From positions 1 through 55,521 of the forward strand of contig JBHLRS010000020.1 of assembly GCA_048882325.1 (NCBI GenBank): a DNA stretch of 55,521 bases, given 5' to 3'. The notes under the pieces were generated by a model. That model saw only the letters and a program-made list of their open reading frames with translations, was not told the DNA's origin and did no database searches. This document shows, piece by piece, positions 7,654-50,100 of this stretch. Position 1 is the stretch's first letter, and each line of letters begins with the position of its first letter. The position numbers were made by a program, and so were the translations under genes. Source of the DNA: Candidatus Thorarchaeota archaeon (GTDB taxonomy: Archaea > Asgardarchaeota > Thorarchaeia > Thorarchaeales > Thorarchaeaceae).

Positions 7654-8721
7654 ATGAACCAGAGGGACCTAGCCTATTGGCTTCTCGACAATGCAGGCCC
7701 TGTCATCAGGTTCAGGACCTTAGTGGACATCTTTCACGAACAAGATGTTGGTACCGTATCAAGGGCTCTAGAAGAGATGTCTACGAGTCCGGTAGTCATG
7801 AAGTGGTTGAATCTCATTGAGCACAGTCTAGCGTTCAACGATATACACTCAGGCAGACAGAATGCATTTGAGAATGTCATAGCTAAGTTGGTTCAGCTCG
7901 GGTGGCGCGCAGGACTACAACCCTTTGATAACAAGACTCTGTTCTTTAGAGTATGGCTGTCAGAGAACATTGAGAAAGAACCGATTAAACCTCATGAGGT
8001 ATTCAAGCGGACACTGATTGCATCTGTACTGGCGCGTGCTGGATATCAGACGGTTGATGCAGTTCAAAAACAAGTGCTCTCACGCCTGAAAACTGTACAT
8101 CAGTTTGCTAAAGATCCAGACTTCTCAAACATCTTTGTTGACAAATCAGAGTACAAGGGAATCCCAAAGGGCCTTGATAGTCACGATTTGGTCAATCCGG
8201 AACTATATCAACACCAGCAATTTACACTCCCATGGATCCACGATATCTATGCATTCAGTCATCTCGATGTCGTACTGAAGGTTGACCATAATCGCAACCA
8301 AGCTGAGGAAGTCCTCGAAACCATTCTCACTCCCGAATATCAAGAGCTTCCATGGAGTTACGGTATAGCTAAGTATGGAAAACGATACTATGTTCTGGGA
8401 TGGGCAGCCCACCTTCCTGGATACTTCAAGCCTCCCAAGGGCAGACTGTTTGCTGAGATGTTGCTTGTTCTTGAAGCATTAGCACCCTTCAGCTGTGTAA
8501 GGGGAAGCATATGGTTCAAGGACTCGATGAAATACTTGGAAGAATTCAGAACTGCGGAGGGTATCTACTCGTTTCCGAGGACATGGTTACCAGAGAAACA
8601 AAAAGGCTATTGGATAGGTGGGGAGTACATGGGTTTTGATGAGAGAAAAGGTAGAAAGAATGCTATTGAGGTTGAATCAACCTTCCGAGTTCTCAGTATC
8701 AGTAAACGAGCGGGTCTTTGA
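7654..8721 (+). CDS. hypothetical protein
   Basis: 355-aa ORF with ATG start and upstream TATA-like element. Confidence 0.8.
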   Translation: MNQRDLAYWLLDNAGPVIRFRTLVDIFHEQDVGTVSRALEEMSTSPVVMKWLNLIEHSLAFNDIHSGRQNAFENVIAKLVQLGWRAGLQPFDNKTLFFRVWLSENIEKEPIKPHEVFKRTLIASVLARAGYQTVDAVQKQVLSRLKTVHQFAKDPDFSNIFVDKSEYKGIPKGLDSHDLVNPELYQHQQFTLPWIHDIYAFSHLDVVLKVDHNRNQAEEVLETILTPEYQELPWSYGIAKYGKRYYVLGWAAHLPGYFKPPKGRLFAEMLLVLEALAPFSCVRGSIWFKDSMKYLEEFRTAEGIYSFPRTWLPEKQKGYWIGGEYMGFDERKGRKNAIEVESTFRVLSISKRAGL

Positions 8722-39961: not shown

Positions 39962-40037
39962 GCCTCGGTGGCTTAGTGGTTATAGCGTCAGCTTCGTAAG
40001 CTGGTGGTCGCGGGTTCGAGTCCCGCCCGGGGCTCCA
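39962..40037 (+). tRNA. tRNA-Thr(CGT)
   Basis: GCCTCGG/CCGGGGC-T-CCA, TCAGC-TTCGTAA-GCTGG, GCGGG-TTCGAGT-CCCGC. Confidence 0.95.
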
Positions 40038-40603
40038 ATTTTCATTTTCCGCTTTCGAAACAATACAAGTGGTATGAATGCGAAGACGATAACGAAGGCA
40101 ACTCCCAGGAGAATCCACTTCAGAGATGTAATGATACTAGCAACGATAATCACTGGTTCAGAGAGATTAGGGTAGGAGCCAATTTGTGTTAACACTAGAG
40201 TGTTCTCAACATAGTCCATGATTCCTCCAAACAAGGGAAAAAGTACCAAGAACTTGGCCTTCGGACTGTCAGGATATGAATTTCTGATTTCCATATTGAT
40301 ACCAAATGCTAGTGCGAACATGTATGTAAGTGGAAACAGAAAATCAAGCATATGTGCTTGCGCCCAGACATTCAAACCTTCCTGACCCAGCGTGTTAAAC
40401 ACATCCGTGATTTCGTCAATCGAATATGAAAAACGCGTGTCAGGCATTGTAACATCAGCATAGACATCATAGACCCAGGTTTGGGTCAACATAGCCATGA
40501 CCATCACAACAGCAAAACTCGAGATTATCATAAGAATGAGATTACGAGGAGAGGTCATTTTCTCAATTGATCTAAGTACTCGCACTAATATGACCCCAAT
40601 CAA
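39980..40603 (-). CDS. four-TM membrane protein whose 3' end overlaps tRNA-Thr antisense
   Basis: PDTRFSY, LDFLFPL, DYVEN, KW pattern; no stop before tRNA. Confidence 0.8.
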   Translation of the reverse strand: MIGVILVRVLRSIEKMTSPRNLILMIISSFAVVMVMAMLTQTWVYDVYADVTMPDTRFSYSIDEITDVFNTLGQEGLNVWAQAHMLDFLFPLTYMFALAFGINMEIRNSYPDSPKAKFLVLFPLFGGIMDYVENTLVLTQIGSYPNLSEPVIIVASIITSLKWILLGVAFVIVFAFIPLVLFRKRKMKIGAPGGTRTRDHQLTKLTL

Positions 40604-40678
40604 GCTCTTTCGTGAGTCCTATTTGGAAGTTTCCAACTGTCCTAATGACTCGAGTCCCGCCCGGGGCTCCAATTTTCA
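40016..40678. mobile_element. single-gene cassette/micro-island at tRNA-Thr
   Basis: Perfect 29-bp direct repeats 40016-40044 and 40650-40678 enclosing one gene. Confidence 0.7.
40650..40678 (+). repeat. copy of tRNA-Thr 3' end plus trailer
   Basis: TCGAGTCCCGCCCGGGGCTCCAATTTTCA identical to 40016-40044. Confidence 0.95.
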
Positions 40679-40708
40679 AATGGCACCCCCTTACATTTGT
40701 TTCAGCTT

Positions 40709-41611
40709 TCATTCTGCACCACGCAATGCTTGACCTGTTTTCCCTAGAAGATACGAAATTACGATGCCTGCAATCAATGAATCGACAAATAATTCGATCC
40801 CATGAACAATTCGCAAGTAGACTGGAAATTGTTCAGATATGACAAAGACAGCCAAAGCACCTGCAATGTAAAGAAGTGCAACTAGTATGACTGCTAGTGA
40901 CTTCCTGTCTAGCTTCACTGAAATAACAATGGGGAGAACGCTAATGACATAGATGAATCCTCGAATAGTCTGAAGCATGATTACGATCTCAACTGCAGGG
41001 AGGGCCAAGTTGTAACCCACGCTGCCATCAGTGTAATACGGAAGTACTAGGGGTGCAATTATGTTTCCAATTGTATAGTAAATGACTAACCAAAGCATAG
41101 ATGCAATAATGAATCGTACAGCAAATTGTGAGGAAGTCCATTTTGCGAAGTATTCCTCTCTGAGTTGGCTAAAGCTTGAGATTTCTCCTTCTGGGTTGAA
41201 CAAAAACCCTGCTACTAGTGCTGTGGGTAGCGTAAGAACCAGTCCAAAGACAACAGCACCGAATGCTAACTCTGGCTGCCCCTCAAATTGAGTTGTGAAG
41301 AAGATGCCCTCTAGAACTGGATTGAGCATCTGAATGACATAAACAGCAATCCATGTGATCAATATTCGTGGTTTTCGTCCCAAAGGGATGTTTGCATTCA
41401 TATAGTACAAAGTAAATGCATAGAGAACAGCGGTAATTACCGTTCCAATAGCGAACCCTAGGGAAAGATATCCCTGAAGTGGAATAAGCAATCCAAATAA
41501 TGCATAGATTACAATAAAGACTGTAATCCTCACTAGCATATCTCTTGACAACTCAACTGAATTCATGATTGTTAATTTCTTACTGCTTAGTAGATAAGGA
41601 ATTGGATGCAA
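40709..41611 (-). CDS. multi-pass membrane hypothetical protein
   Basis: About 8 hydrophobic segments; start uncertain. Confidence 0.75.
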   Translation of the reverse strand: MHPIPYLLSSKKLTIMNSVELSRDMLVRITVFIVIYALFGLLIPLQGYLSLGFAIGTVITAVLYAFTLYYMNANIPLGRKPRILITWIAVYVIQMLNPVLEGIFFTTQFEGQPELAFGAVVFGLVLTLPTALVAGFLFNPEGEISSFSQLREEYFAKWTSSQFAVRFIIASMLWLVIYYTIGNIIAPLVLPYYTDGSVGYNLALPAVEIVIMLQTIRGFIYVISVLPIVISVKLDRKSLAVILVALLYIAGALAVFVISEQFPVYLRIVHGIELFVDSLIAGIVISYLLGKTGQALRGAE

Positions 41612-41926
41612 CCAAAGAAGATTTGGCGTTAGCTAAGTCTTTGGTTGGGAGACCTCATGGCAGTTTAAGCAACAGAAACTGAATCCAATCGAATCCAGGT
41701 CCATTTCTTCTTGTGCAGGTTTCTACAATATTATATGGAGATAGAATAGAATCTTTAGCCAATAGGTGAAAAAACATGAAAAATGAAAAGAAATCGAAAA
41801 AGCCCCACTATCGGGCTTCAAAGCCAGGCCTATTTGAATGGCTGGCTGGAACTACCAGATAATTGAGGTGGTTCAAAAACTGCGAACAGAGAGGAATGTC
41901 ACAAGGTGTGACGCCTCTGTTCCAAA

Positions 41927-43204
41927 CTAATTCCTTCGTTTCACGAATACAATCACAACTGCGATCAATCCCACTGATGCTAAAATCACGACTGCGACAG
42001 TTTCAAGCGGGATGCTTGACCCGTTATCTACTAAGATTGACCGTAGGATGTAGTTTCTAAACAGATCAAACTCAGGGTCATATTCATCATCCCCTACACC
42101 CGCTGTGAAGACCACTATCATATCATGTTCAGGTGAAACCATAATCTTCTGACCATGACGACCATAGGCAAAGTAGATTCCAAGGTCAGATCGTAACCAC
42201 CAATGCCAGCCATAACCAAATTGAGATCCCAGCGGATTCTCATGAGGAATTGGTGTAATCGAGTTTGCTACGAACTCCTCAGACACAAGCTGGGTACCGT
42301 TCCAAGTGCCATTGTTCAGATATAGAAATCCAAGTTTTGCCATATCCACTGCTCTGAGACTGAAACCGCCCATTACATTGTACCAACCACCTGGCAGTGG
42401 CGGGAGGCTGAAGTAGTCCACACCGATGTGATTGAACAAGTGCTCACGAAATACATAGTACACCTGGTCATCGTAGACCTGTTGGATGATGGCTCCCAGT
42501 AGCACGGATGCTCCACCATTGTATGCCCAGTACTCTCCTGGTTCATAGATTATGGAACGATTGAGTATGTACTCAATAGCATCATGACTATACATCATAT
42601 TCATGATTGGATTGTCACCTGGGTAGACGTACGGAGAGGACCACTCATCCCAGTCATAACCTGGTGTCATCGTGAGGAGGTGCTCTATTGTGATATTGGC
42701 CCACCCTGGATCAAGATCTAGATAATTATACTCTGGGAAGAAGTCAAGCATTTTCTGAGATACGTTATCAAGCATGCTCTCCTGAAAGGCGACTCCAAGG
42801 AGAATGGATACCACACTCTTGCTTACCGAGTGTTGAGAATGTAATGTGATGTTATTGTAGTATGGACTAGGATACTGTTCAAACACGGCATACCCGTTCT
42901 TTATTATGAGAACAGAGTGAATAGGGTATTCCTCTTCCTCAATCAATGCCATCATGTCATTCAAGATTGCAGAACTCATCCCCTGCTCTTCTGGGGTTCT
43001 ATTCCGCCATCCATCGTTAGGCCAGTAGTCCCGAGTCGTAGTGCTCGGAATTGACGTAGATACCAGTTCAGGATTTTGAGCGGGACCTGTAATCATTGGT
43101 AGGAACAGGACGAGCATAACAAATAGAGCTACAGATGGTGCAGGTTTCATCCAACTCTTCTTAAAGAGATGCATGGCAATCAGAAAGTTCTGATGATTAA
43201 TCAT
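41927..43204 (-). CDS. beta-lactamase-family serine hydrolase, membrane-anchored
   Basis: SVSKS (SxxK), LLTMTPG, YNG, YGWHWW, GRHGQ; N- and C-terminal hydrophobic segments. Confidence 0.9.
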   Translation of the reverse strand: MINHQNFLIAMHLFKKSWMKPAPSVALFVMLVLFLPMITGPAQNPELVSTSIPSTTTRDYWPNDGWRNRTPEEQGMSSAILNDMMALIEEEEYPIHSVLIIKNGYAVFEQYPSPYYNNITLHSQHSVSKSVVSILLGVAFQESMLDNVSQKMLDFFPEYNYLDLDPGWANITIEHLLTMTPGYDWDEWSSPYVYPGDNPIMNMMYSHDAIEYILNRSIIYEPGEYWAYNGGASVLLGAIIQQVYDDQVYYVFREHLFNHIGVDYFSLPPLPGGWYNVMGGFSLRAVDMAKLGFLYLNNGTWNGTQLVSEEFVANSITPIPHENPLGSQFGYGWHWWLRSDLGIYFAYGRHGQKIMVSPEHDMIVVFTAGVGDDEYDPEFDLFRNYILRSILVDNGSSIPLETVAVVILASVGLIAVVIVFVKRRN

Positions 43205-43384: not shown

Positions 43385-43532
43385 GCGGAGGTTGCCAAGC
43401 CAGGTTAAAGGCGCTAGGTTGAGGGCCTAGACTTTGTGGCGTCTTGTCACGAAGAGGCTATCTCGTAGGAGTTCGCGAGTTCAATCGATTTGGGATTTCT
43501 CCTAGTCGGAATAAATCTCGCCCTCCGCACCA
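43385..43532 (+). tRNA. tRNA-Leu(GAG) with two non-canonical introns (43431-43460 at ~43/44; 43485-43514 in T-loop ~58/59)
   Basis: GCGGAGG/CCTCCGC-A-CCA acceptor, CTAGG-TTGAGGG-CCTAG anticodon arm; both inserts fold as bulge-helix-bulge-like motifs and removal restores variable arm and GCGAG-TTCAAAT-CTCGC. Confidence 0.9.
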
Positions 43533-44137
43533 TTTTCTTTCTGAATTTGTGAATTGAAATGCCATATTGATAGAAGAGTGAGAGGGATTCCACATAATAT
43601 CGCAATAACAGGAATTCCTGATTCACCCAAGAAACCAACAAGAAAAAGAGAAGCAAACGTCATGATAATGGCAATTGGTTCAACGACCCTTTCATGGGTT
43701 GTCCATTCTACTGGGGGCCCAAGTATTATGGCTACTGCAATGTATAGTAACAATGTGAAGAATAACACAGTTTCAATCACAATGATCAAACGCAATTGAG
43801 GAAGCAATGTTAGACCATAAGCTCCCAATAGAATAAGGAGTGAACCAAACACGAACTCTGTTAGAGCAACAACCTTTGGCGTGACTTTGATTCGGGATTC
43901 TTTCATTTCATCAGACATGCTCTTGTTATTTTGTTTGGTATCATAGCCATTTGTCTGTCTGTACATCCAAATGATGAGGATGTTGCATATAACAAAGGTG
44001 ACTAAACTATCCAGTAAACTATCCCAAAAAGACCTGCTAACTAGATACTTATATTCAAAGTATAGAAACACACCAACAACAAGGATTAGGTATCCCTCAA
44101 GAAAGCGCTTTTGTTCTTCTTTCATTTTCGCGACCAT
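43502..44137 (-). CDS. membrane protein, cassette paralog 1 (ends GAEGEIYSD inside tRNA-Leu)
   Basis: Six hydrophobic segments; shares ALTEF...PVEW motif with the next two genes. Confidence 0.75.
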   Translation of the reverse strand: MVAKMKEEQKRFLEGYLILVVGVFLYFEYKYLVSRSFWDSLLDSLVTFVICNILIIWMYRQTNGYDTKQNNKSMSDEMKESRIKVTPKVVALTEFVFGSLLILLGAYGLTLLPQLRLIIVIETVLFFTLLLYIAVAIILGPPVEWTTHERVVEPIAIIMTFASLFLVGFLGESGIPVIAILCGIPLTLLSIWHFNSQIQKENGAEGEIYSD

Positions 44138-44195
44138 TCTAAAACGAAACTATGTATCATACGACCGTGTAGAATCTTATCAATGAATTTGAGAG

Positions 44196-44217
44196 TCAAA
44201 TCTCGCCCTCCGCACCA
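44196..44217 (+). repeat. tRNA-Leu 3'-end copy 1
   Basis: TCAAATCTCGCCCTCCGCACCA, identical to the spliced tRNA 3' 22 nt. Confidence 0.95.
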
Positions 44218-44621
44218 TATTCTTCTTTGGTAGTTGTAGTCTTCCTGATTCGGGCATTTGGATGAAGAGTGGCAATTAGAATCAAGATTAATCCCACAAG
44301 CATTACGAGAATTCCCAGTTCGAAACTTGTCGAGTTAAAACCAATCCAAATGCCTGAAAGCAACAGAGTAGAGCCAATTCCATTCAATCTCTTTGCATTT
44401 GCGGACCATTCAGGAGTTTCACTTGTTATTGCATTATAACCAAAGAATATCAAGAAAGCAAAAAACAAGCCAAATACAAGCATAGTAAGATCCTTTAGCT
44501 CGCTAGTTCTAATGTTGATTGCTAATACCATGAGAAGTAGTAATATACCTATAAACAATTCAGCAAGAGCCACTAATTCTGTCGATAGTTCCTTATCAGA
44601 CTCCTGATTGTTACGTTTCAA
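44196..44621 (-). CDS. four-TM membrane protein, cassette paralog 2 (ends GAEGEI*)
   Basis: ALAELFIG...TPEWS; GGAGG RBS upstream of TTG. Confidence 0.75.
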   Translation of the reverse strand: MKRNNQESDKELSTELVALAELFIGILLLLMVLAINIRTSELKDLTMLVFGLFFAFLIFFGYNAITSETPEWSANAKRLNGIGSTLLLSGIWIGFNSTSFELGILVMLVGLILILIATLHPNARIRKTTTTKEEYGAEGEI

Positions 44622-44671
44622 CCGATACCCTCCAACAAGATAAGCACTGTTGATAGATGATTACTGTTATT

Positions 44672-44694
44672 TTCAAATCTCGCCCTCCGCACCA
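44672..44694 (+). repeat. tRNA-Leu 3'-end copy 2
   Basis: TTCAAATCTCGCCCTCCGCACCA, identical to the spliced tRNA 3' 23 nt. Confidence 0.95.
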
Positions 44695-45137
44695 TCCTCT
44701 TCTTTGTAAGGCAAGAAATCTAGGCGTGGCTTAGATCTATTGATGTGTGGAGTTGAATACTTCATACGCCAGCAGGATGATAGAATAAGAAGAGTCCCAA
44801 ATACCACATATAGAATAGCCACTCCAGTTTCGGTCAATATATCAACAAGAAATAGAAACAACGAGGACAACAAAAGAAGGGATACAACGCAATCAATCCG
44901 GTCACTTGTTGTATCGTTGGACCACGTGACTGGAGTACCCAGAACCCACAACTTTGCTAAATAGAGTATCAATAGAAAAACCACAGCGATTCCGATTAAA
45001 ATAAAAATATAGAGTGCCAACAACTGGAAAAATCCGTAAAATCCCACCAGGAGACTAAGTAATCCAAAACCGAACTCAGTCAAAGCAAAAACATTGTGCC
45101 TGTAATCAAAACTTGAGTGGTTCTCTGAGTCGTCCAT
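44673..45137 (-). CDS. four-TM membrane protein, cassette paralog 3 (ends GAEGEI*)
   Basis: ALTEFGFG...TPVTWS; GAGGAG RBS upstream of ATG. Confidence 0.75.
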   Translation of the reverse strand: MDDSENHSSFDYRHNVFALTEFGFGLLSLLVGFYGFFQLLALYIFILIGIAVVFLLILYLAKLWVLGTPVTWSNDTTSDRIDCVVSLLLLSSLFLFLVDILTETGVAILYVVFGTLLILSSCWRMKYSTPHINRSKPRLDFLPYKEEDGAEGEI

Positions 45138-45208
45138 ACCCGAATCTCCTCACTTGAAATATAGCGGTTTTAAATATAAAATCCATCCATTCACCTTGCG
45201 TGAACTGA

Positions 45209-45222
45209 GAGTTCAAATCTCG
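45209..45222 (+). repeat. tRNA-Leu 3'-end copy 3 (T-arm only, truncated)
   Basis: GAGTTCAAATCTCG, 14/14 to spliced T-arm, in the intergenic gap. Confidence 0.65.
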
Positions 45223-45237
45223 TTTCAAGAGTTGAGT

Positions 45238-45594
45238 CTATTCAGTTTCGTATCTTGATGGCTCAGCGAAGAAATCCATAGCTCTGAAGAAAGTCTTGAA
45301 CTCAGCAGAGTGAACGACTCCTTCAGGGATATAGTATGAGTCTCCTCTCTTGTAGAGTTTTGTCGCATCTCCAATTGTCAACAACATCTCTCCCTCAATT
45401 ACAAAGCCATACTGTGCACTATGACTATGAGGAGGGAGACTTCCTATGGGTTCAATCTCAAAGAACGCAACTTGAAAACCGACACCTTGAGCTATCCATG
45501 CTTGGACCCCTTCCAATGGAAGCTTTGCCTTTGGCAGTTCTCTGATACAATCCGGATATGGTTCAACGGTCATGATTCTCAGCATCCTTTTCAT
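45238..45594 (-). CDS. cupin domain protein
   Basis: PPHSH...Q.G.VIEG, GDSYYIPEGVVHS. Confidence 0.9.
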   Translation of the reverse strand: MKRMLRIMTVEPYPDCIRELPKAKLPLEGVQAWIAQGVGFQVAFFEIEPIGSLPPHSHSAQYGFVIEGEMLLTIGDATKLYKRGDSYYIPEGVVHSAEFKTFFRAMDFFAEPSRYETE

Positions 45595-46046
45595 TCAAGT
45601 TCAATTCGCTCCATCTTGAATTTCCTCATTCGTTCATCAATTCCTGAACCGAAAGGTGCCATAAATCTCTGGATTGAAGTAAATAGTTCTTCAGGGACTT
45701 CTAAGGCTGCTTCAATGCACTGAGCAAGATCATTCTTTGAAAGGTATTGAGTCAAGGGGCAATGGACCAAATAATGGTCTTCCCCATCTGTTGAGAAAAT
45801 GGGATATTTCCTGCAAAGCAACGGGCGTACAGGATAGATTTCGCAGAGAGATTCTTTGAGATAGGGGCAAATAAGGTCCTCTCCGAAATCTGTAACATAG
45901 CAGTTCTCCGTGATTTCAATGAACTTGTCCGGATACCCAACCTCAATAACTCGGTCTACTTCCGACTTTGTGGCAACAGATCCCCCTAGCGTACAACAGT
46001 ATCCACCGCATTCTTTGCAGATACTCAAGTGCTTGTCATTTGTCAT
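45591..46046 (-). CDS. YkgJ family cysteine-cluster protein
   Basis: CKECGGYCC, CPYL...CEIYPVRPLLCRKYP. Confidence 0.9.
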   Translation of the reverse strand: MTNDKHLSICKECGGYCCTLGGSVATKSEVDRVIEVGYPDKFIEITENCYVTDFGEDLICPYLKESLCEIYPVRPLLCRKYPIFSTDGEDHYLVHCPLTQYLSKNDLAQCIEAALEVPEELFTSIQRFMAPFGSGIDERMRKFKMERIELE

Positions 46047-46075
46047 ATACTAAGCTCAAGTGTCTTACTTCCATA

Positions 46076-46097
46076 TCAAATCTCACCCTCGGCATCA
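46076..46097 (+). repeat. tRNA-Leu 3'-end copy 4 (degenerate)
   Basis: TCAAATCTCACCCTCGGCATCA, 19/22 to spliced tRNA end, followed by pyrimidine tract. Confidence 0.8.
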
Positions 46098-46111
46098 TTC
46101 TTCTCTTGAGA

Positions 46112-46588
46112 TTACACTAGAACCTTCTCAAGCCAGACATGATATCCCCAAGGATTCTTGTTTTTCTCGAAGATTGAATACCCGTGCTTTTTGTAAAAGC
46201 TCACAGCCCACTCTGCGTCGCTGTCTGTTTCTAAGCGAACCTTCGTGAAATTGAGGTGCTTCGCCTTCTTTTCAAGAAAACTCAGCAGCGCAGAACCAAT
46301 CCCTTGCCTTTGGTACTTTGAATGAACGTGCATTAGTGGAATCCATGCTGTATCCTCGTTTCTAGTTCCAAAAGATCCCACAGCAACAATCCTGCCCCGC
46401 TTCTTGTGGATATAGAACTCCATGACCTTTGCCATCTCATCAAATTGTTTTCGAGTCAAGAAAGGGTCAAGAAAATGTTCTTCCGGGATGATTTTGCTGT
46501 ACCATTCGCGATTGATTGTATTGATGAGTGTGAGAATCTCTTCCAAATCAGCTGGTTCAGCAGGTGTGAACTTGATTGATTGTGTCAT
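46112..46588 (-). CDS. GNAT family N-acetyltransferase
   Basis: VHSKYQRQGIGSALL, AVSFYKKHGY. Confidence 0.92.
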   Translation of the reverse strand: MTQSIKFTPAEPADLEEILTLINTINREWYSKIIPEEHFLDPFLTRKQFDEMAKVMEFYIHKKRGRIVAVGSFGTRNEDTAWIPLMHVHSKYQRQGIGSALLSFLEKKAKHLNFTKVRLETDSDAEWAVSFYKKHGYSIFEKNKNPWGYHVWLEKVLV

Positions 46589-46694
46589 TCAAACCGTGAT
46601 AGGAGTCACTTCAATAGGGATATGAATTCTTTCTCTTCTGAGGAGAGTTCTGGAAGTCCAGAGCCAAAATTCAAAACTATTTGATGATTAATTC

Positions 46695-47210
46695 TTGACA
46701 GGGGGATTGTTCGTGCAGGAATCCAAGGTTGGCAACTTAGGCGGGATTAGTAGACTACCTGGTATCATCGTTCCAGTCATTTTGCTTGGAATTGTGGCTA
46801 TCTTCTCACCTATTGCATACCTTGAGACCACTGAAACACCTCCATCTGATCCTCCTCCGCCCGGATGGAATACTTCTGTCACAATCTACCTCTGGGTGGC
46901 ACGATTCAGTAGCGCTTATTTCCAAAATATGTATGGTCTGGGAGATGGTGTGACCAATCTGCATACAACTCCATTCATTGTTCTGACGATTATCTATGTC
47001 ATCATCCATTTTGTTGTTAACATGAGAAGAATGAAGCCAAAATATGGTGCAGGACTTGGAGTTGTTCTGTTTCTGATTTGGGTGTCAATCTGTCAATTGA
47101 TCTATGGTACCTTGCAGGATTGGGCACTGATTCAAATCCCTATACTTCCACTAATAGGGTGCTGCATACTATTCATTGGATATTTGAATCAGCATGCAAG
47201 TTCCTCATGA
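46695..47210 (+). CDS. membrane hypothetical protein
   Basis: Four hydrophobic segments. Confidence 0.65.
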   Translation: MTGGLFVQESKVGNLGGISRLPGIIVPVILLGIVAIFSPIAYLETTETPPSDPPPPGWNTSVTIYLWVARFSSAYFQNMYGLGDGVTNLHTTPFIVLTIIYVIIHFVVNMRRMKPKYGAGLGVVLFLIWVSICQLIYGTLQDWALIQIPILPLIGCCILFIGYLNQHASSS

Positions 47211-47804
47211 TTAACGTACCAAGAGGAATGCGTACCTGTTCATTGATTCATTGTAATCCTTCAGAACGTTGAGTGGGTATCCTGCAGCACGAACTGTTGA
47301 GAAGACATCTACAGCAAGAGCTTCAGAGGTGGGACGAGCGCGTTTTGGATGTTTACAGTTCTCTCTAGAGATTGCACACTCTTCACAGAGATGACAACTA
47401 CCAGCAAAAAGGAGAAAGGCTTTCTCTTGTCCTGAAAGGAAGACCTCACGCTCTAGCTTCGAAAGTCTACCATCAATGTCTTTCACGACATCATGACGGT
47501 CTTCAGGATCATTGAGTTCGACTGGAAAGTGAAAGATTGCAATGTCTGAATACTCATCAAAGAGATCCCTGCACTCCGCGACCGATGGCGTGTTTGGTGG
47601 GCAACATGCCGCTTTGCCATAGGATGGACAACCATAAGCGCACTTCATACGCACCCAGTTTGCTACGACGACATCTTCTGGACCTATCCACTTATAGTTG
47701 TTAAAGCCATGTTTGTGAAAGAGACCTTCAATTTCCTTAAGTGATTGAGTCCTACTCATAGTCAATCTCTCCAGTAACCTGACCCACAACTTGGTTTTCA
47801 CCAT
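47211..47804 (-). CDS. DUF2284 metal-binding protein
   Basis: KCAYGCPSYG...CPP, GSCHLC..C...C.HP..ARP..EA..VDV. Confidence 0.85.
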   Translation of the reverse strand: MVKTKLWVRLLERLTMSRTQSLKEIEGLFHKHGFNNYKWIGPEDVVVANWVRMKCAYGCPSYGKAACCPPNTPSVAECRDLFDEYSDIAIFHFPVELNDPEDRHDVVKDIDGRLSKLEREVFLSGQEKAFLLFAGSCHLCEECAISRENCKHPKRARPTSEALAVDVFSTVRAAGYPLNVLKDYNESMNRYAFLLVR

Positions 47805-47913
47805 TATTTATGCTCATGTGTAAGCAATAATTCTCACAATCAACTTCATTCATTATCTCGGCTTAGAGGAACAGAATCATAAGTTCTCGAATTATGACAT
47901 AGGAGATTGCATC

Positions 47914-48753
47914 ATGAAAACATGGGAACAGAATGCTGAGGTCGCGTTTCAGGGAGAACAAGGTGCGTATAGCGAAGCCGCAGTCTTCAAGATATTCGGT
48001 TCGACAGCTAGACCAAAACCCTGTAAGCGTTTCTTGGATGTTTTTGAAGAGGTTTGGAATGGAACGACCAAGTATGGGGTTATTCCAATCGAGAACTCGA
48101 TTGAGGGGAGTGTCAGGCCAGTATACGACCTTTTTCTTCAGTATGAACTGAAAGTGTGTGGTGAGCTGGACCTTAGAATATCACACTGCCTGATTGCTAA
48201 TCCAGGTACGCATCTGGAATCGGTGAATGTTGTCTATTCACATCCTCAAGCTTTGGGCCAATGTAGAAACTATTTGGATAGATTGGGAGTCGAATTGATC
48301 TCGACCTATGACACTGCTGGAAGTGTGAAGATGATAAAGGAGCTGGGTTTGACAGATGCAGCGTCTATAGCGGGAGAAAGAGCGGCTGAGATTTATGAGA
48401 TGAAGATTCTTGCTAAGGATATCGCTGACACTAAGACCAACTTCACACGTTTCTTTATACTAGCCAAGGAAGAAGTCCCTCCTAGCGGAAGTGACAAGAC
48501 CTCAATCATCTTCTCGACGAAGCATGTCCCAGGGGCGCTCTATAGCGCTCTGGGAGAACTGGCTACTCGAGGGATTAACATGACCAAGATAGAATCCAGA
48601 CCTACTAAGCAGAATCTCTGGGAATATAATTTCTACATGGACTTTGAGGGACATTCGAGTGATCCACTCTGCGCAGAGGCATTAGAGGGATTGAGAAACA
48701 ATTCACTCTTTGTCAAGGTCCTAGGCTCATATCCGAAGGCGATTGAGCAGTAA
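47914..48753 (+). CDS. pheA: prephenate dehydratase
   Basis: PIENSIEGSV, SHPQALGQC, NFTRF, ACT domain IESRP, LGSYP. Confidence 0.95.
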   Translation: MKTWEQNAEVAFQGEQGAYSEAAVFKIFGSTARPKPCKRFLDVFEEVWNGTTKYGVIPIENSIEGSVRPVYDLFLQYELKVCGELDLRISHCLIANPGTHLESVNVVYSHPQALGQCRNYLDRLGVELISTYDTAGSVKMIKELGLTDAASIAGERAAEIYEMKILAKDIADTKTNFTRFFILAKEEVPPSGSDKTSIIFSTKHVPGALYSALGELATRGINMTKIESRPTKQNLWEYNFYMDFEGHSSDPLCAEALEGLRNNSLFVKVLGSYPKAIEQ

Positions 48754-48768
48754 AACAGGGTTGTAAAG

Positions 48769-48930
48769 GGACCCACCCCGAGTGCGACGAGGCAAAATCG
48801 CACCACTTGCGGGTGGGTCCGAGGGAGGGAGTTGTCTTCTGAAGTATAATGGGACTCTGCGCGGCATTGTGATCCAAGACGTGCATTGTTTCTGTGGCGA
48901 GTCCCTGAAGGTGTGTGTGAATCTTGGATT
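48769..48930 (-). ncRNA. putative structured non-coding RNA
   Basis: Crossing stems (48851/48899 and 48872/48922) plus a GC-rich terminal hairpin 48769-48820; minus-strand TATA-like CTTATATT at 48953-48960. Confidence 0.35.
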
Positions 48931-49092
48931 CAAATTCATATACGGAGTGGTCAATATAAGACCGTCATGCTAGCAATCGTCGGTTTTTCACCTCAAATTT
49001 GCAAAAAAGTTGCAGTTCAGATACAAGCAAAGAACTATGGCAATGTATAAAGGCCAAAAAGAGCGCGATGAGGTTGAGTCCCGCAGGAGTGG

Positions 49093-50100
49093 TTGATGAC
49101 GTCTTCCCGAAGGATAGCAATCGTTGGAACAGGTAATATGGGCCGCATTCACGCACGTATTCTTTGTGACATGGGAGTCCTAGTAGGCGTGGCTGACATG
49201 GATAAAGCGACGGTTGAACAGGTAGCTAAGAGTCACAACACGAAAGCATTCTATGATTTCGAGAGCATGATTGATGAAACAAATCCGGAGGGTGTTGTCA
49301 TCTCTACACCCACTTCAACGCATGCAGATATCGCCCGCTCAATTGCGACAGAATATGAGGGTATCAAAGGAATCTTGATTGAAAAGCCTCTTGCAAGTAC
49401 CCTTGAGGACGGAAAGAAAGTTGCAGAGGTTGTGAAGAAGAAAGGAATCGTCACTCTTGTGTCTCACTCTGAGATCTATAATCCAATCGTAGACCGTGCT
49501 CTATCCCTCATTGACAGCGATGCTATTGGAACACCACGAACAGTGATTCACGACCGACGGGGATTTGTTGATCCTGCAAGAATTCCTTCACTCGGTGATG
49601 TCTTCGAGGACATCGGAGTTCATGACTTTGACATAATGGCAAGAATCAGTAGTGGTCCAGCAAAACTCTATGCCCAGAGCAATACTGCTGGTGGAATTCA
49701 TAACAGCGGTACGGTTATGGTGAAGTTTGACTCAGGTACTGAGCACTTCTTCCATCTTTCGAGACAGTATGCAGGACGTAGACGATCCATGGATGTGTCG
49801 GGAACGAAAGGAGCACTTGTGTTGGACTTGTTTGGTCAGATAATCAAAGTACAGCACCTTGACCAAGCTCCCGTCGCCAAGGGAGATACAATCAATCTTC
49901 CAGAGAGAGGAGCTACTATCAAGGTCTATGGAGAACCAATACGGGAAGTTCTCAACGACTTCTTGCGATGCATAAGTTCAGGAGAAACCCCACGAGTGAG
50001 TGTTGATGATGCAATCTGTGCGCTTCAGATTGTGGAGGCAGCACGAGAGAGTGCAGAATCAGGCAAGGTCATTGATATTGAAATCAGATCTAGGACTTGA
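49093..50100 (+). CDS. Gfo/Idh/MocA family oxidoreductase
   Basis: IVGTGNMG, TPTSTH, IEKPLA, DIGVHDFD. Confidence 0.9.
   Translation: MMTSSRRIAIVGTGNMGRIHARILCDMGVLVGVADMDKATVEQVAKSHNTKAFYDFESMIDETNPEGVVISTPTSTHADIARSIATEYEGIKGILIEKPLASTLEDGKKVAEVVKKKGIVTLVSHSEIYNPIVDRALSLIDSDAIGTPRTVIHDRRGFVDPARIPSLGDVFEDIGVHDFDIMARISSGPAKLYAQSNTAGGIHNSGTVMVKFDSGTEHFFHLSRQYAGRRRSMDVSGTKGALVLDLFGQIIKVQHLDQAPVAKGDTINLPERGATIKVYGEPIREVLNDFLRCISSGETPRVSVDDAICALQIVEAARESAESGKVIDIEIRSRT

Follow-up and report, generated by a model that had tools for sequence, protein, structure and literature searches.

A tRNA-Leu-anchored array of gene-sized cassettes bounded by tRNA 3'-end repeats in a Thorarchaeota genome

Additive flexible islands are known from Alteromonas (PMC4898812), Ca. 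Actinomarinales (PMC7771536) and Ca. Methylopumilus, in which the island fGI-2 contains repeats of the final 20 bp of tRNA-Lys (PMC10872708). These islands are anchored on a tRNA gene, carry direct repeats of the tRNA end after their cassettes, vary in cassette number and order independently of phylogeny, and exchange cassettes across species. The same properties are found for an array behind the tRNA-Leu(GAG) gene in a 55,521-nucleotide stretch of DNA from Candidatus Thorarchaeota (genus SMTZ1-45; assembly GCA_048882325.1, contig JBHLRS010000020.1), which as a whole is termed the window. At this locus, a fixed tRNA gene is followed by repeats of its 3' end, the content between the repeats is variable, empty sites exist among relatives, and the cassettes are not tied to phylogeny. 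The array is a minimal variant of the tRNA-anchored additive islands of bacteria. It differs from them in that it is archaeal, that its cassettes are mostly single genes of ~0.3-1.2 kb, that the repeat may supply the stop codon, that the anchors include intron-bearing tRNA genes, 23S rRNA and actin genes, and that no integrase is found. It is very probably built by accretion from mobile cassettes of about gene size, which recombine at the tRNA 3' end. The full reading, in which these cassettes are moved by host homology-directed recombination rather than by a dedicated integrase, is given a probability of roughly 0.5.

Tycheposons of Prochlorococcus (bioRxiv 10.1101/2020.12.28.424599) likewise grow on the tRNA-proximal side and contain scattered partial tRNAs, but they have a size of several kb or more and carry genes for tRNA-specific tyrosine recombinases, whereas the units of the array are gene-sized and encode none. 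Tycheposons and the elements sought by Islander are defined by their own tyrosine integrase and a size of at least 2 kb, whereas the units described here have a median length of 630 bp and no integrase. Islander discards candidates that are shorter than 2 kb or lack an integrase (PMC4383910), and arrays of this type are therefore invisible to standard island finders. Archaeal elements that integrate into tRNA genes (PMC8371274; Sugahara 2012, PMC3293823) resemble the array in their targets, in the displaced tRNA fragments, in the variable introns and in the intron-carrying copies, but they encode a recombinase and usually use att sites of 40-60 bp. Integrons, including archaeal integrons and clusters of attC sites lacking integron integrases (CALINs) (PMC9668308), resemble the array in that short, mostly one-gene cassettes are gained, lost and shuffled at sites that abut or overlap the gene ends. 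However, the array lacks IntI, attI and attC, its sites are not hairpins, upstream DNA is kept in the cassettes, and the genes lie in both orientations relative to the tRNA (39 antisense versus 28 sense families, p 0.22). An attC-like hairpin was considered and rejected, because no attC-type pair of inverse core boxes surrounds any repeat and the repeat folds no better than its shuffles. The array is integron-like in its working, but it is not an integron. The original prediction, which was made from the window sequence alone and termed the locus an archaeal integron analogue, is thus borne out for the gain, loss and reordering of cassettes, but not for the integron components, and the architecture had already been described in bacteria. 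No description of such arrays in Thorarchaeota is found in the searchable literature, and a term search shows none in the portion of the Asgard mobile-element literature that it reaches.

The anchor, the tRNA-Leu(GAG) gene (43385-43532, plus strand), has homologues in all 27 genomes of the genus. It contains two introns of 30 nt, one at the start of the variable arm (43431-43460), which is missing from the intron-free alleles of relatives, and one in the T-loop at 58/59 (43485-43514), for which the probable splice sites are assigned by the bulge-helix-bulge rule. The spliced form is an 88-nt tRNA-Leu(gag). ARAGORN and Rfam do not call this gene in the window, because it has these two introns. 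Four copies of its 3' end follow on the plus strand, as originally predicted. R1 (44196-44217) is a perfect 22-mer from T55 to CCA with a pyrimidine trailer, R2 (44673-44694) is also a perfect 22-mer, R3 (45209-45222) is a 14-nt remnant of the T-arm that has lost the acceptor stem and CCA, and R4 (46076-46097) matches at 19 of 22 positions with 3 mismatches. The successive spacings, from the tRNA to R1 and then from each copy to the next, are 685, 477, ~540 and ~865 bp. No 22-mer match is obtained in 100 shuffles. The 14-mer of R3 occurs only once more in the genome, inside another tRNA-end copy, and R3 is located where the cupin unit of relatives starts. The full-length copies begin in the T-loop as predicted, but they match the spliced T-loop, not the intron-bearing genomic one.

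The gene content between the copies is also as originally described. The three proximal genes, all on the minus strand, encode membrane proteins of 211 aa (43502-44137), 141 aa (44196-44621) and 154 aa (44673-45137), which are remote paralogues with 27-35% identity. The cassette 2 and 3 genes stop within R1 and R2, respectively, at a TGA that is the antisense of T55-C56-A57. The cassette 1 gene runs through the tRNA 3' end, continues three codons into the intron and stops in intron 2. The open reading frames that overlap the repeats encode these membrane proteins and show no similarity to integrases, including the SSV-type integrase fragment that was sought. They are followed on the same strand by the genes for a cupin (Cupin_2; 45238-45594), a YkgJ/CxxCxxCC protein (45591-46046) and a GNAT acetyltransferase (46112-46588). 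The start codon of the YkgJ gene is located 26-29 nt from the repeat, and the antisense T-loop of the repeat may form part of its predicted promoter; start distances vary widely among cassettes.

The array was predicted to end at the GNAT gene, but three more genes at 46695-48753 are accessory and repeat-flanked in relatives. Here, G000 denotes the genome that holds the window (~93% complete), other G-numbers denote genomes of the family and genus, L-numbers denote retrieved loci or metagenome contigs, and C-numbers denote contigs. Ca. Thorarchaeota, SMTZ1-45 among them, are the source of the homologous loci. The gene for a 171-aa membrane protein (46695-47210, plus strand), an older accessory unit, is preceded by a repeat in relatives. 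The DUF2284 gene (47211-47804, minus strand) is a repeat-bounded cassette in G010 and L207 and lies first behind tRNA-Leu in L232. The prephenate dehydratase gene (PheA; 47914-48753, plus strand) is a repeat-bounded cassette in G003 and is preceded by a repeat in G020. This gene, usually a housekeeping gene, acts as a mobile cassette in this genus. The first core gene, encoding a GFO/IDH/MocA protein (49093-50100, plus strand), forms the distal border and directly follows the tRNA in the empty sites of G031 and G035, so that the region from 43533 to ~49000 is entirely accessory. No degenerate repeat is detectable between the distal genes at 46600-49000, where the best match has 9 mismatches, which is the background level. 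In relatives, the cupin gene is found apart from the YkgJ gene and first in the array in several cases, the YkgJ gene of at least seven genomes makes up a full cassette of 490 bp between repeats, and the GNAT gene is the first cassette after the tRNA in G004 and L219. The cupin, GNAT, DUF2284 and PheA genes thus each occur behind a tRNA or a repeat elsewhere, in shuffled orders, which suggests that the cupin and YkgJ genes were probably fused by loss of the repeat between them and that the distal genes are likewise fused cassettes.

Comparison with relatives reveals gain, loss and shuffling at repeat boundaries, as expected from the original prediction. Counting the tRNA genes themselves, the site pattern matches 2-18 times in each genome of the genus, and genomes of other genera mostly have 2-4 matches. 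The 96 repeat-bounded units from relatives are mostly single-gene and closely packed, and a few have a size of 2-4 kb. The gene 3' end lies near a repeat, and promoter-sized DNA lies on the 5' side. None of the units encodes an integrase, and the prediction of minimal non-autonomous cassettes agrees with this result and with their median length. The cassette 2 unit is also found directly behind tRNA-Leu(CAG) in G013, with 85% nucleotide identity and matching ends, and units switch between tRNA-Leu isoacceptors that have an identical 3' end. Pairwise unit alignments extend almost end to end. The 490-bp YkgJ unit takes array ranks 1 to 4; its alignments begin 0-3 nt past the repeat in seven genomes. 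In four of these they extend exactly to the next repeat, and in three they stop 29-53 nt short of it. Both relative orders are found for cupin/YkgJ, GNAT/YkgJ, cupin/GNAT and PheA/YkgJ. The mean nucleotide identity of YkgJ between species is 84%, as compared with 72% and 67% for the flanking core genes, and its divergence is not correlated with that of the core (Mantel p 0.24), whereas core against core gives p 0.0005. This result indicates that the YkgJ cassette crosses species. In the species that it crosses, the tRNA and the repeats are the most conserved local homology. The repeat-bounded units therefore are mobile, are reordered, are transferred across species, and undergo erosion and fusion.

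These results also bear on the possibility that large islands with integrases inserted successively, as in tycheposons, and that the units are what erosion has left of them. Accretion in tandem that leaves partial tRNAs behind has been documented (bioRxiv 2020.12.28.424599), and the few units of 2-4 kb would fit such an origin. However, one and the same 490-bp unit, with unchanged ends, is present in many species and positions, the cassettes are more similar than the core, strain pairs differ at fresh and precise junctions, and no tyrosine recombinase or integrase fragment is found in a redundant set of loci with repeats, which totals 1.57 Mb. As an account of the current mobility, this explanation is largely refuted, and overall it is quite unlikely, although some cassettes could have originated in this way. 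None of the findings that would have spoken against the original prediction is obtained: gene order varies in relatives, the breakpoints coincide with repeats, and an origin from eroded islands is not supported.

The number of repeat mismatches increases with the rank of the copy in the array (0.7, 1.25, 1.27 and 2.0; rho 0.27, permutation p 0.006). The predicted decay away from the tRNA is therefore present but weak, and several arrays contain a decayed first copy ahead of perfect ones. Addition is likewise mostly tRNA-proximal as predicted, but a strictly sequential addition is too simple, in view of the weak gradient and of exchange at internal copies. In the array of L186, which has eight repeats, the same cassette end is present twice (389-552 and 7853-8016) with 90% identity.

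The breakpoints are resolved further by closely related metagenome contigs. From repeat position 57 onward, L181 and L208 share 99.96% identity across 2.5 kb, and upstream of this position one has the tRNA and the other has a further cassette or cassettes. L223 and L228 have 99.6% identity up to a point 8 nt beyond an internal copy, after which it drops to 82-89%. The tRNA-Thr genes of L201 and L223 contain a T-loop intron at 58/59. In L228, which is 99.9% identical to L201, an intron-free copy with the rare T-stem variant of the host lies at this point, behind extra DNA. Provided that the tRNA of L228, which lies off the contig, has the intron, the crossover probably lies 3' of the T-loop intron. 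A crossover at this position would explain why the window copies look spliced without an RNA intermediate. It also bears on RNA-templated capture, in which a mature tRNA or its 22-nt 3' fragment primes reverse transcription on an mRNA and the product integrates. The match of the window copies to the spliced T-loop and the antisense orientation of the six proximal genes are consistent with such capture. However, the split of 39 and 28 families rules out a general antisense bias, so that the six-gene run of the window is no rule, and sense cassettes exist. In addition, some copies contain introns, a reverse transcriptase is present in only one of the 28 genomes of the genus, the cassettes retain promoter-sized upstream DNA, and a DNA crossover 3' of the intron accounts for the spliced form. 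RNA-templated capture is therefore very unlikely. At another tRNA, the end of contig C75 and the start of C88 of G000 overlap by 77 nt, beginning at the tRNA-Phe T-loop, as expected if the assembly branches at a repeat or strains differ.

The original prediction included a trans-acting recombinase, to be sought as a stand-alone tyrosine recombinase gene, but G000 contains no detectable tyrosine recombinase (PF00589), SSV-type integrase, serine recombinase/resolvase, IS110, Cas1 or reverse transcriptase. PF00589 is found in 8 of the 27 relatives in the genus and in 14 of the 36 genomes of the family. It is missing in the other 19 genomes of the genus, including the array-bearing G001 and G013 (93-97% complete), and no large serine recombinase is found in any of the 28 genomes of the genus. 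Family integrases do not lie beside tRNA genes in the 20 regions retrieved, many of which are on short contigs. The site is present in no IMG/VR contig, and none of 80 metagenome loci has the terminal repeats that would be a sign of a circular form. Weak integrase-like matches proved to be zinc-ribbon matches. An integrase near a tRNA end in G018 (L083) was set aside, as it has a different target tRNA, lies on a short contig and is judged foreign by appearance. Most genomes of the genus, and the single-contig family genome G067, contain no detectable tyrosine recombinase, not even an XerA-like one.

Alternatively, the cassettes may be non-autonomous circles, for which transient viruses or plasmids provide a tyrosine integrase in trans; this enzyme, of a class that acts in the T-loop or at the T-stem/acceptor junction, would both insert and excise them. 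Tyrosine integrases classically leave a tRNA gene together with a displaced fragment of it (PMC4383910). The most telling clue to the enzyme is the left edge of the repeat, which points both ways. The edge is sharp, at T54 or T55, in about two thirds of 116 independent repeat copies. A visiting integrase also agrees with the unchanging junction of the YkgJ copies, all of which share it, with the weak polarity and with the occurrence of tyrosine recombinases in the family. However, ~30% of the independent copies reach beyond the T-loop. Their ends are graded, within the T-stem, the variable arm or introns, without a second fixed position, and one cassette family has several junction lengths. 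Besides the distribution of integrases described above, a visiting integrase is disfavoured by the need for separate enzymes for the Leu, Thr, Glu, Pro and Val tRNAs and for the 23S rRNA and actin tails. This explanation is plausible, but somewhat less probable than host recombination.

The additional anchors have the same design. A genome-wide search for similar repeats detects end-duplications in G000 at tRNA-Thr, Pro, Glu and Val. In the window, tRNA-Thr(CGT) (39962-40037, plus strand) is followed by a one-gene cassette and a perfect 29-bp copy (40650-40678). In L284:2504-9080 (G000 C33), accessory genes are separated by the 3' tail and trailer of the 23S rRNA, present in five copies that all end at the same position on the right but have graded ends on the left. 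The tail is identified from relatives, as the 23S gene is unassembled in G000. A second copy of the last codons and trailer of an actin gene lies 2.45 kb downstream of the first, with three genes in between (L285; G000 C3:106669-106721 and 109121-109173), and a similar repeat is present at the tail of a 450-aa gene in G000. The tRNAs and the 23S rRNA and actin tails are unrelated in sequence, and one integrase would therefore not explain them. The tRNA end proposed as the junction does bound the units, but the design is not specific to tRNAs. We tentatively propose, at somewhat below even odds, that Thorarchaeota have an integrase-free, anchor-independent mode of gene capture. Host recombination would land self-contained one-gene cassettes at the tails of the most conserved genes (tRNAs, 23S rRNA and actin). 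The cassettes would thereby cross between species whose divergence (60-70% core identity) precludes ordinary recombination, and T-loop introns would be bypassed by crossovers 3' of them. The array itself provides a definite path by which accessory genes move among Asgard archaea, hidden from standard island finders.

In the proposed mechanism, a cassette would enter from a relative as a small circle or as linear DNA, the latter anchored by the tRNA at one end and by a repeat at the other end. It would bring a replacement tRNA 3' end with a pyrimidine-rich terminator and recombine with the resident tRNA end or with an internal copy. The tRNA would thereby be restored, and its former end would be displaced downstream. 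When the crossover falls 3' of the T-loop intron, intron-free copies would arise behind an intron-bearing tRNA. Old copies would then erode and neighbouring cassettes would fuse, as supposed for the cupin and YkgJ genes and for the distal genes. The catalyst would probably be host homology-directed recombination on short conserved anchors; RadA is present. New cassettes might be born by a homology-anchored illegitimate joint, for which the AT-rich T-loop is perhaps the position where AT-rich intergenic DNA is joined most easily. Homology-facilitated illegitimate recombination occurs in transformable bacteria (PMC6382021).

Several points weigh against host homology-directed recombination. An anchor of 19-22 bp is short for RadA-type recombination. 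The sharp edge at T54 or T55 suggests a site-specific cut, and the weak polarity of decay along the arrays (rho 0.27) is also unfavourable. The completeness of G000 is only 93%, and binning often misses mobile elements. The strain-level differences at the repeats would fit either gain or loss, and, since they are taken from metagenome contigs, their junctions could be assembly chimeras at repeats. Finally, no circle, read junction or enzyme was observed.

The locus is also a natural test of the idea that tRNA introns guard against integration (Randau and Soll, summarised in PMC3293823), because the same tRNA-Leu(GAG) gene has introns at four positions or none among relatives. The first copy has 1.4 mismatches behind T-arm-intron alleles and 0.7 behind the others (n=10 versus 36, one-sided p 0.03, for related and thus non-independent genomes). 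This result suggests that the arrays behind T-arm-intron alleles are somewhat older. The window runs counter to this trend, with perfect repeat copies behind a T-loop-intron allele, and the trio L201, L223 and L228 suggests that the T-loop intron is bypassed in one case.

Fragments and possible transfers of tRNA sequences are observed as well. 5' fragments of tRNA-Leu genes without 3' ends are present in L035 (4131-4479, reverse strand), L043, L066 and L148; the fragment of L035 lies 230 bp upstream of the full gene and has a different intron, which recalls the report of Sugahara 2012. The tRNA-Thr alleles L034:4737-4843 and L223:293-395 contain a T-loop intron that closely resembles that of tRNA-Leu, and the L034 allele also has a Leu-type T-stem, which suggests that introns may be transferred between tRNA genes by gene conversion. 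In the tRNA-Thr(CGT) row of the window (39962-43204), two further accessory genes follow the 29-bp copy; in G013, two genes of this row adjoin without a repeat, and an intron-bearing copy follows them. More duplications of gene tails or terminators surround small genes in G000 at C2:147107-148402, C59:3177-4450, C87 and C21:2768-12979, and a 36-bp repeat common to C87 and C21 has eight copies. At 29-2700 of the window, three copies of another tRNA 3' part end near 73, 466 and 2688 and differ in their T-stems; the 5' part of this tRNA is cut by the contig start.

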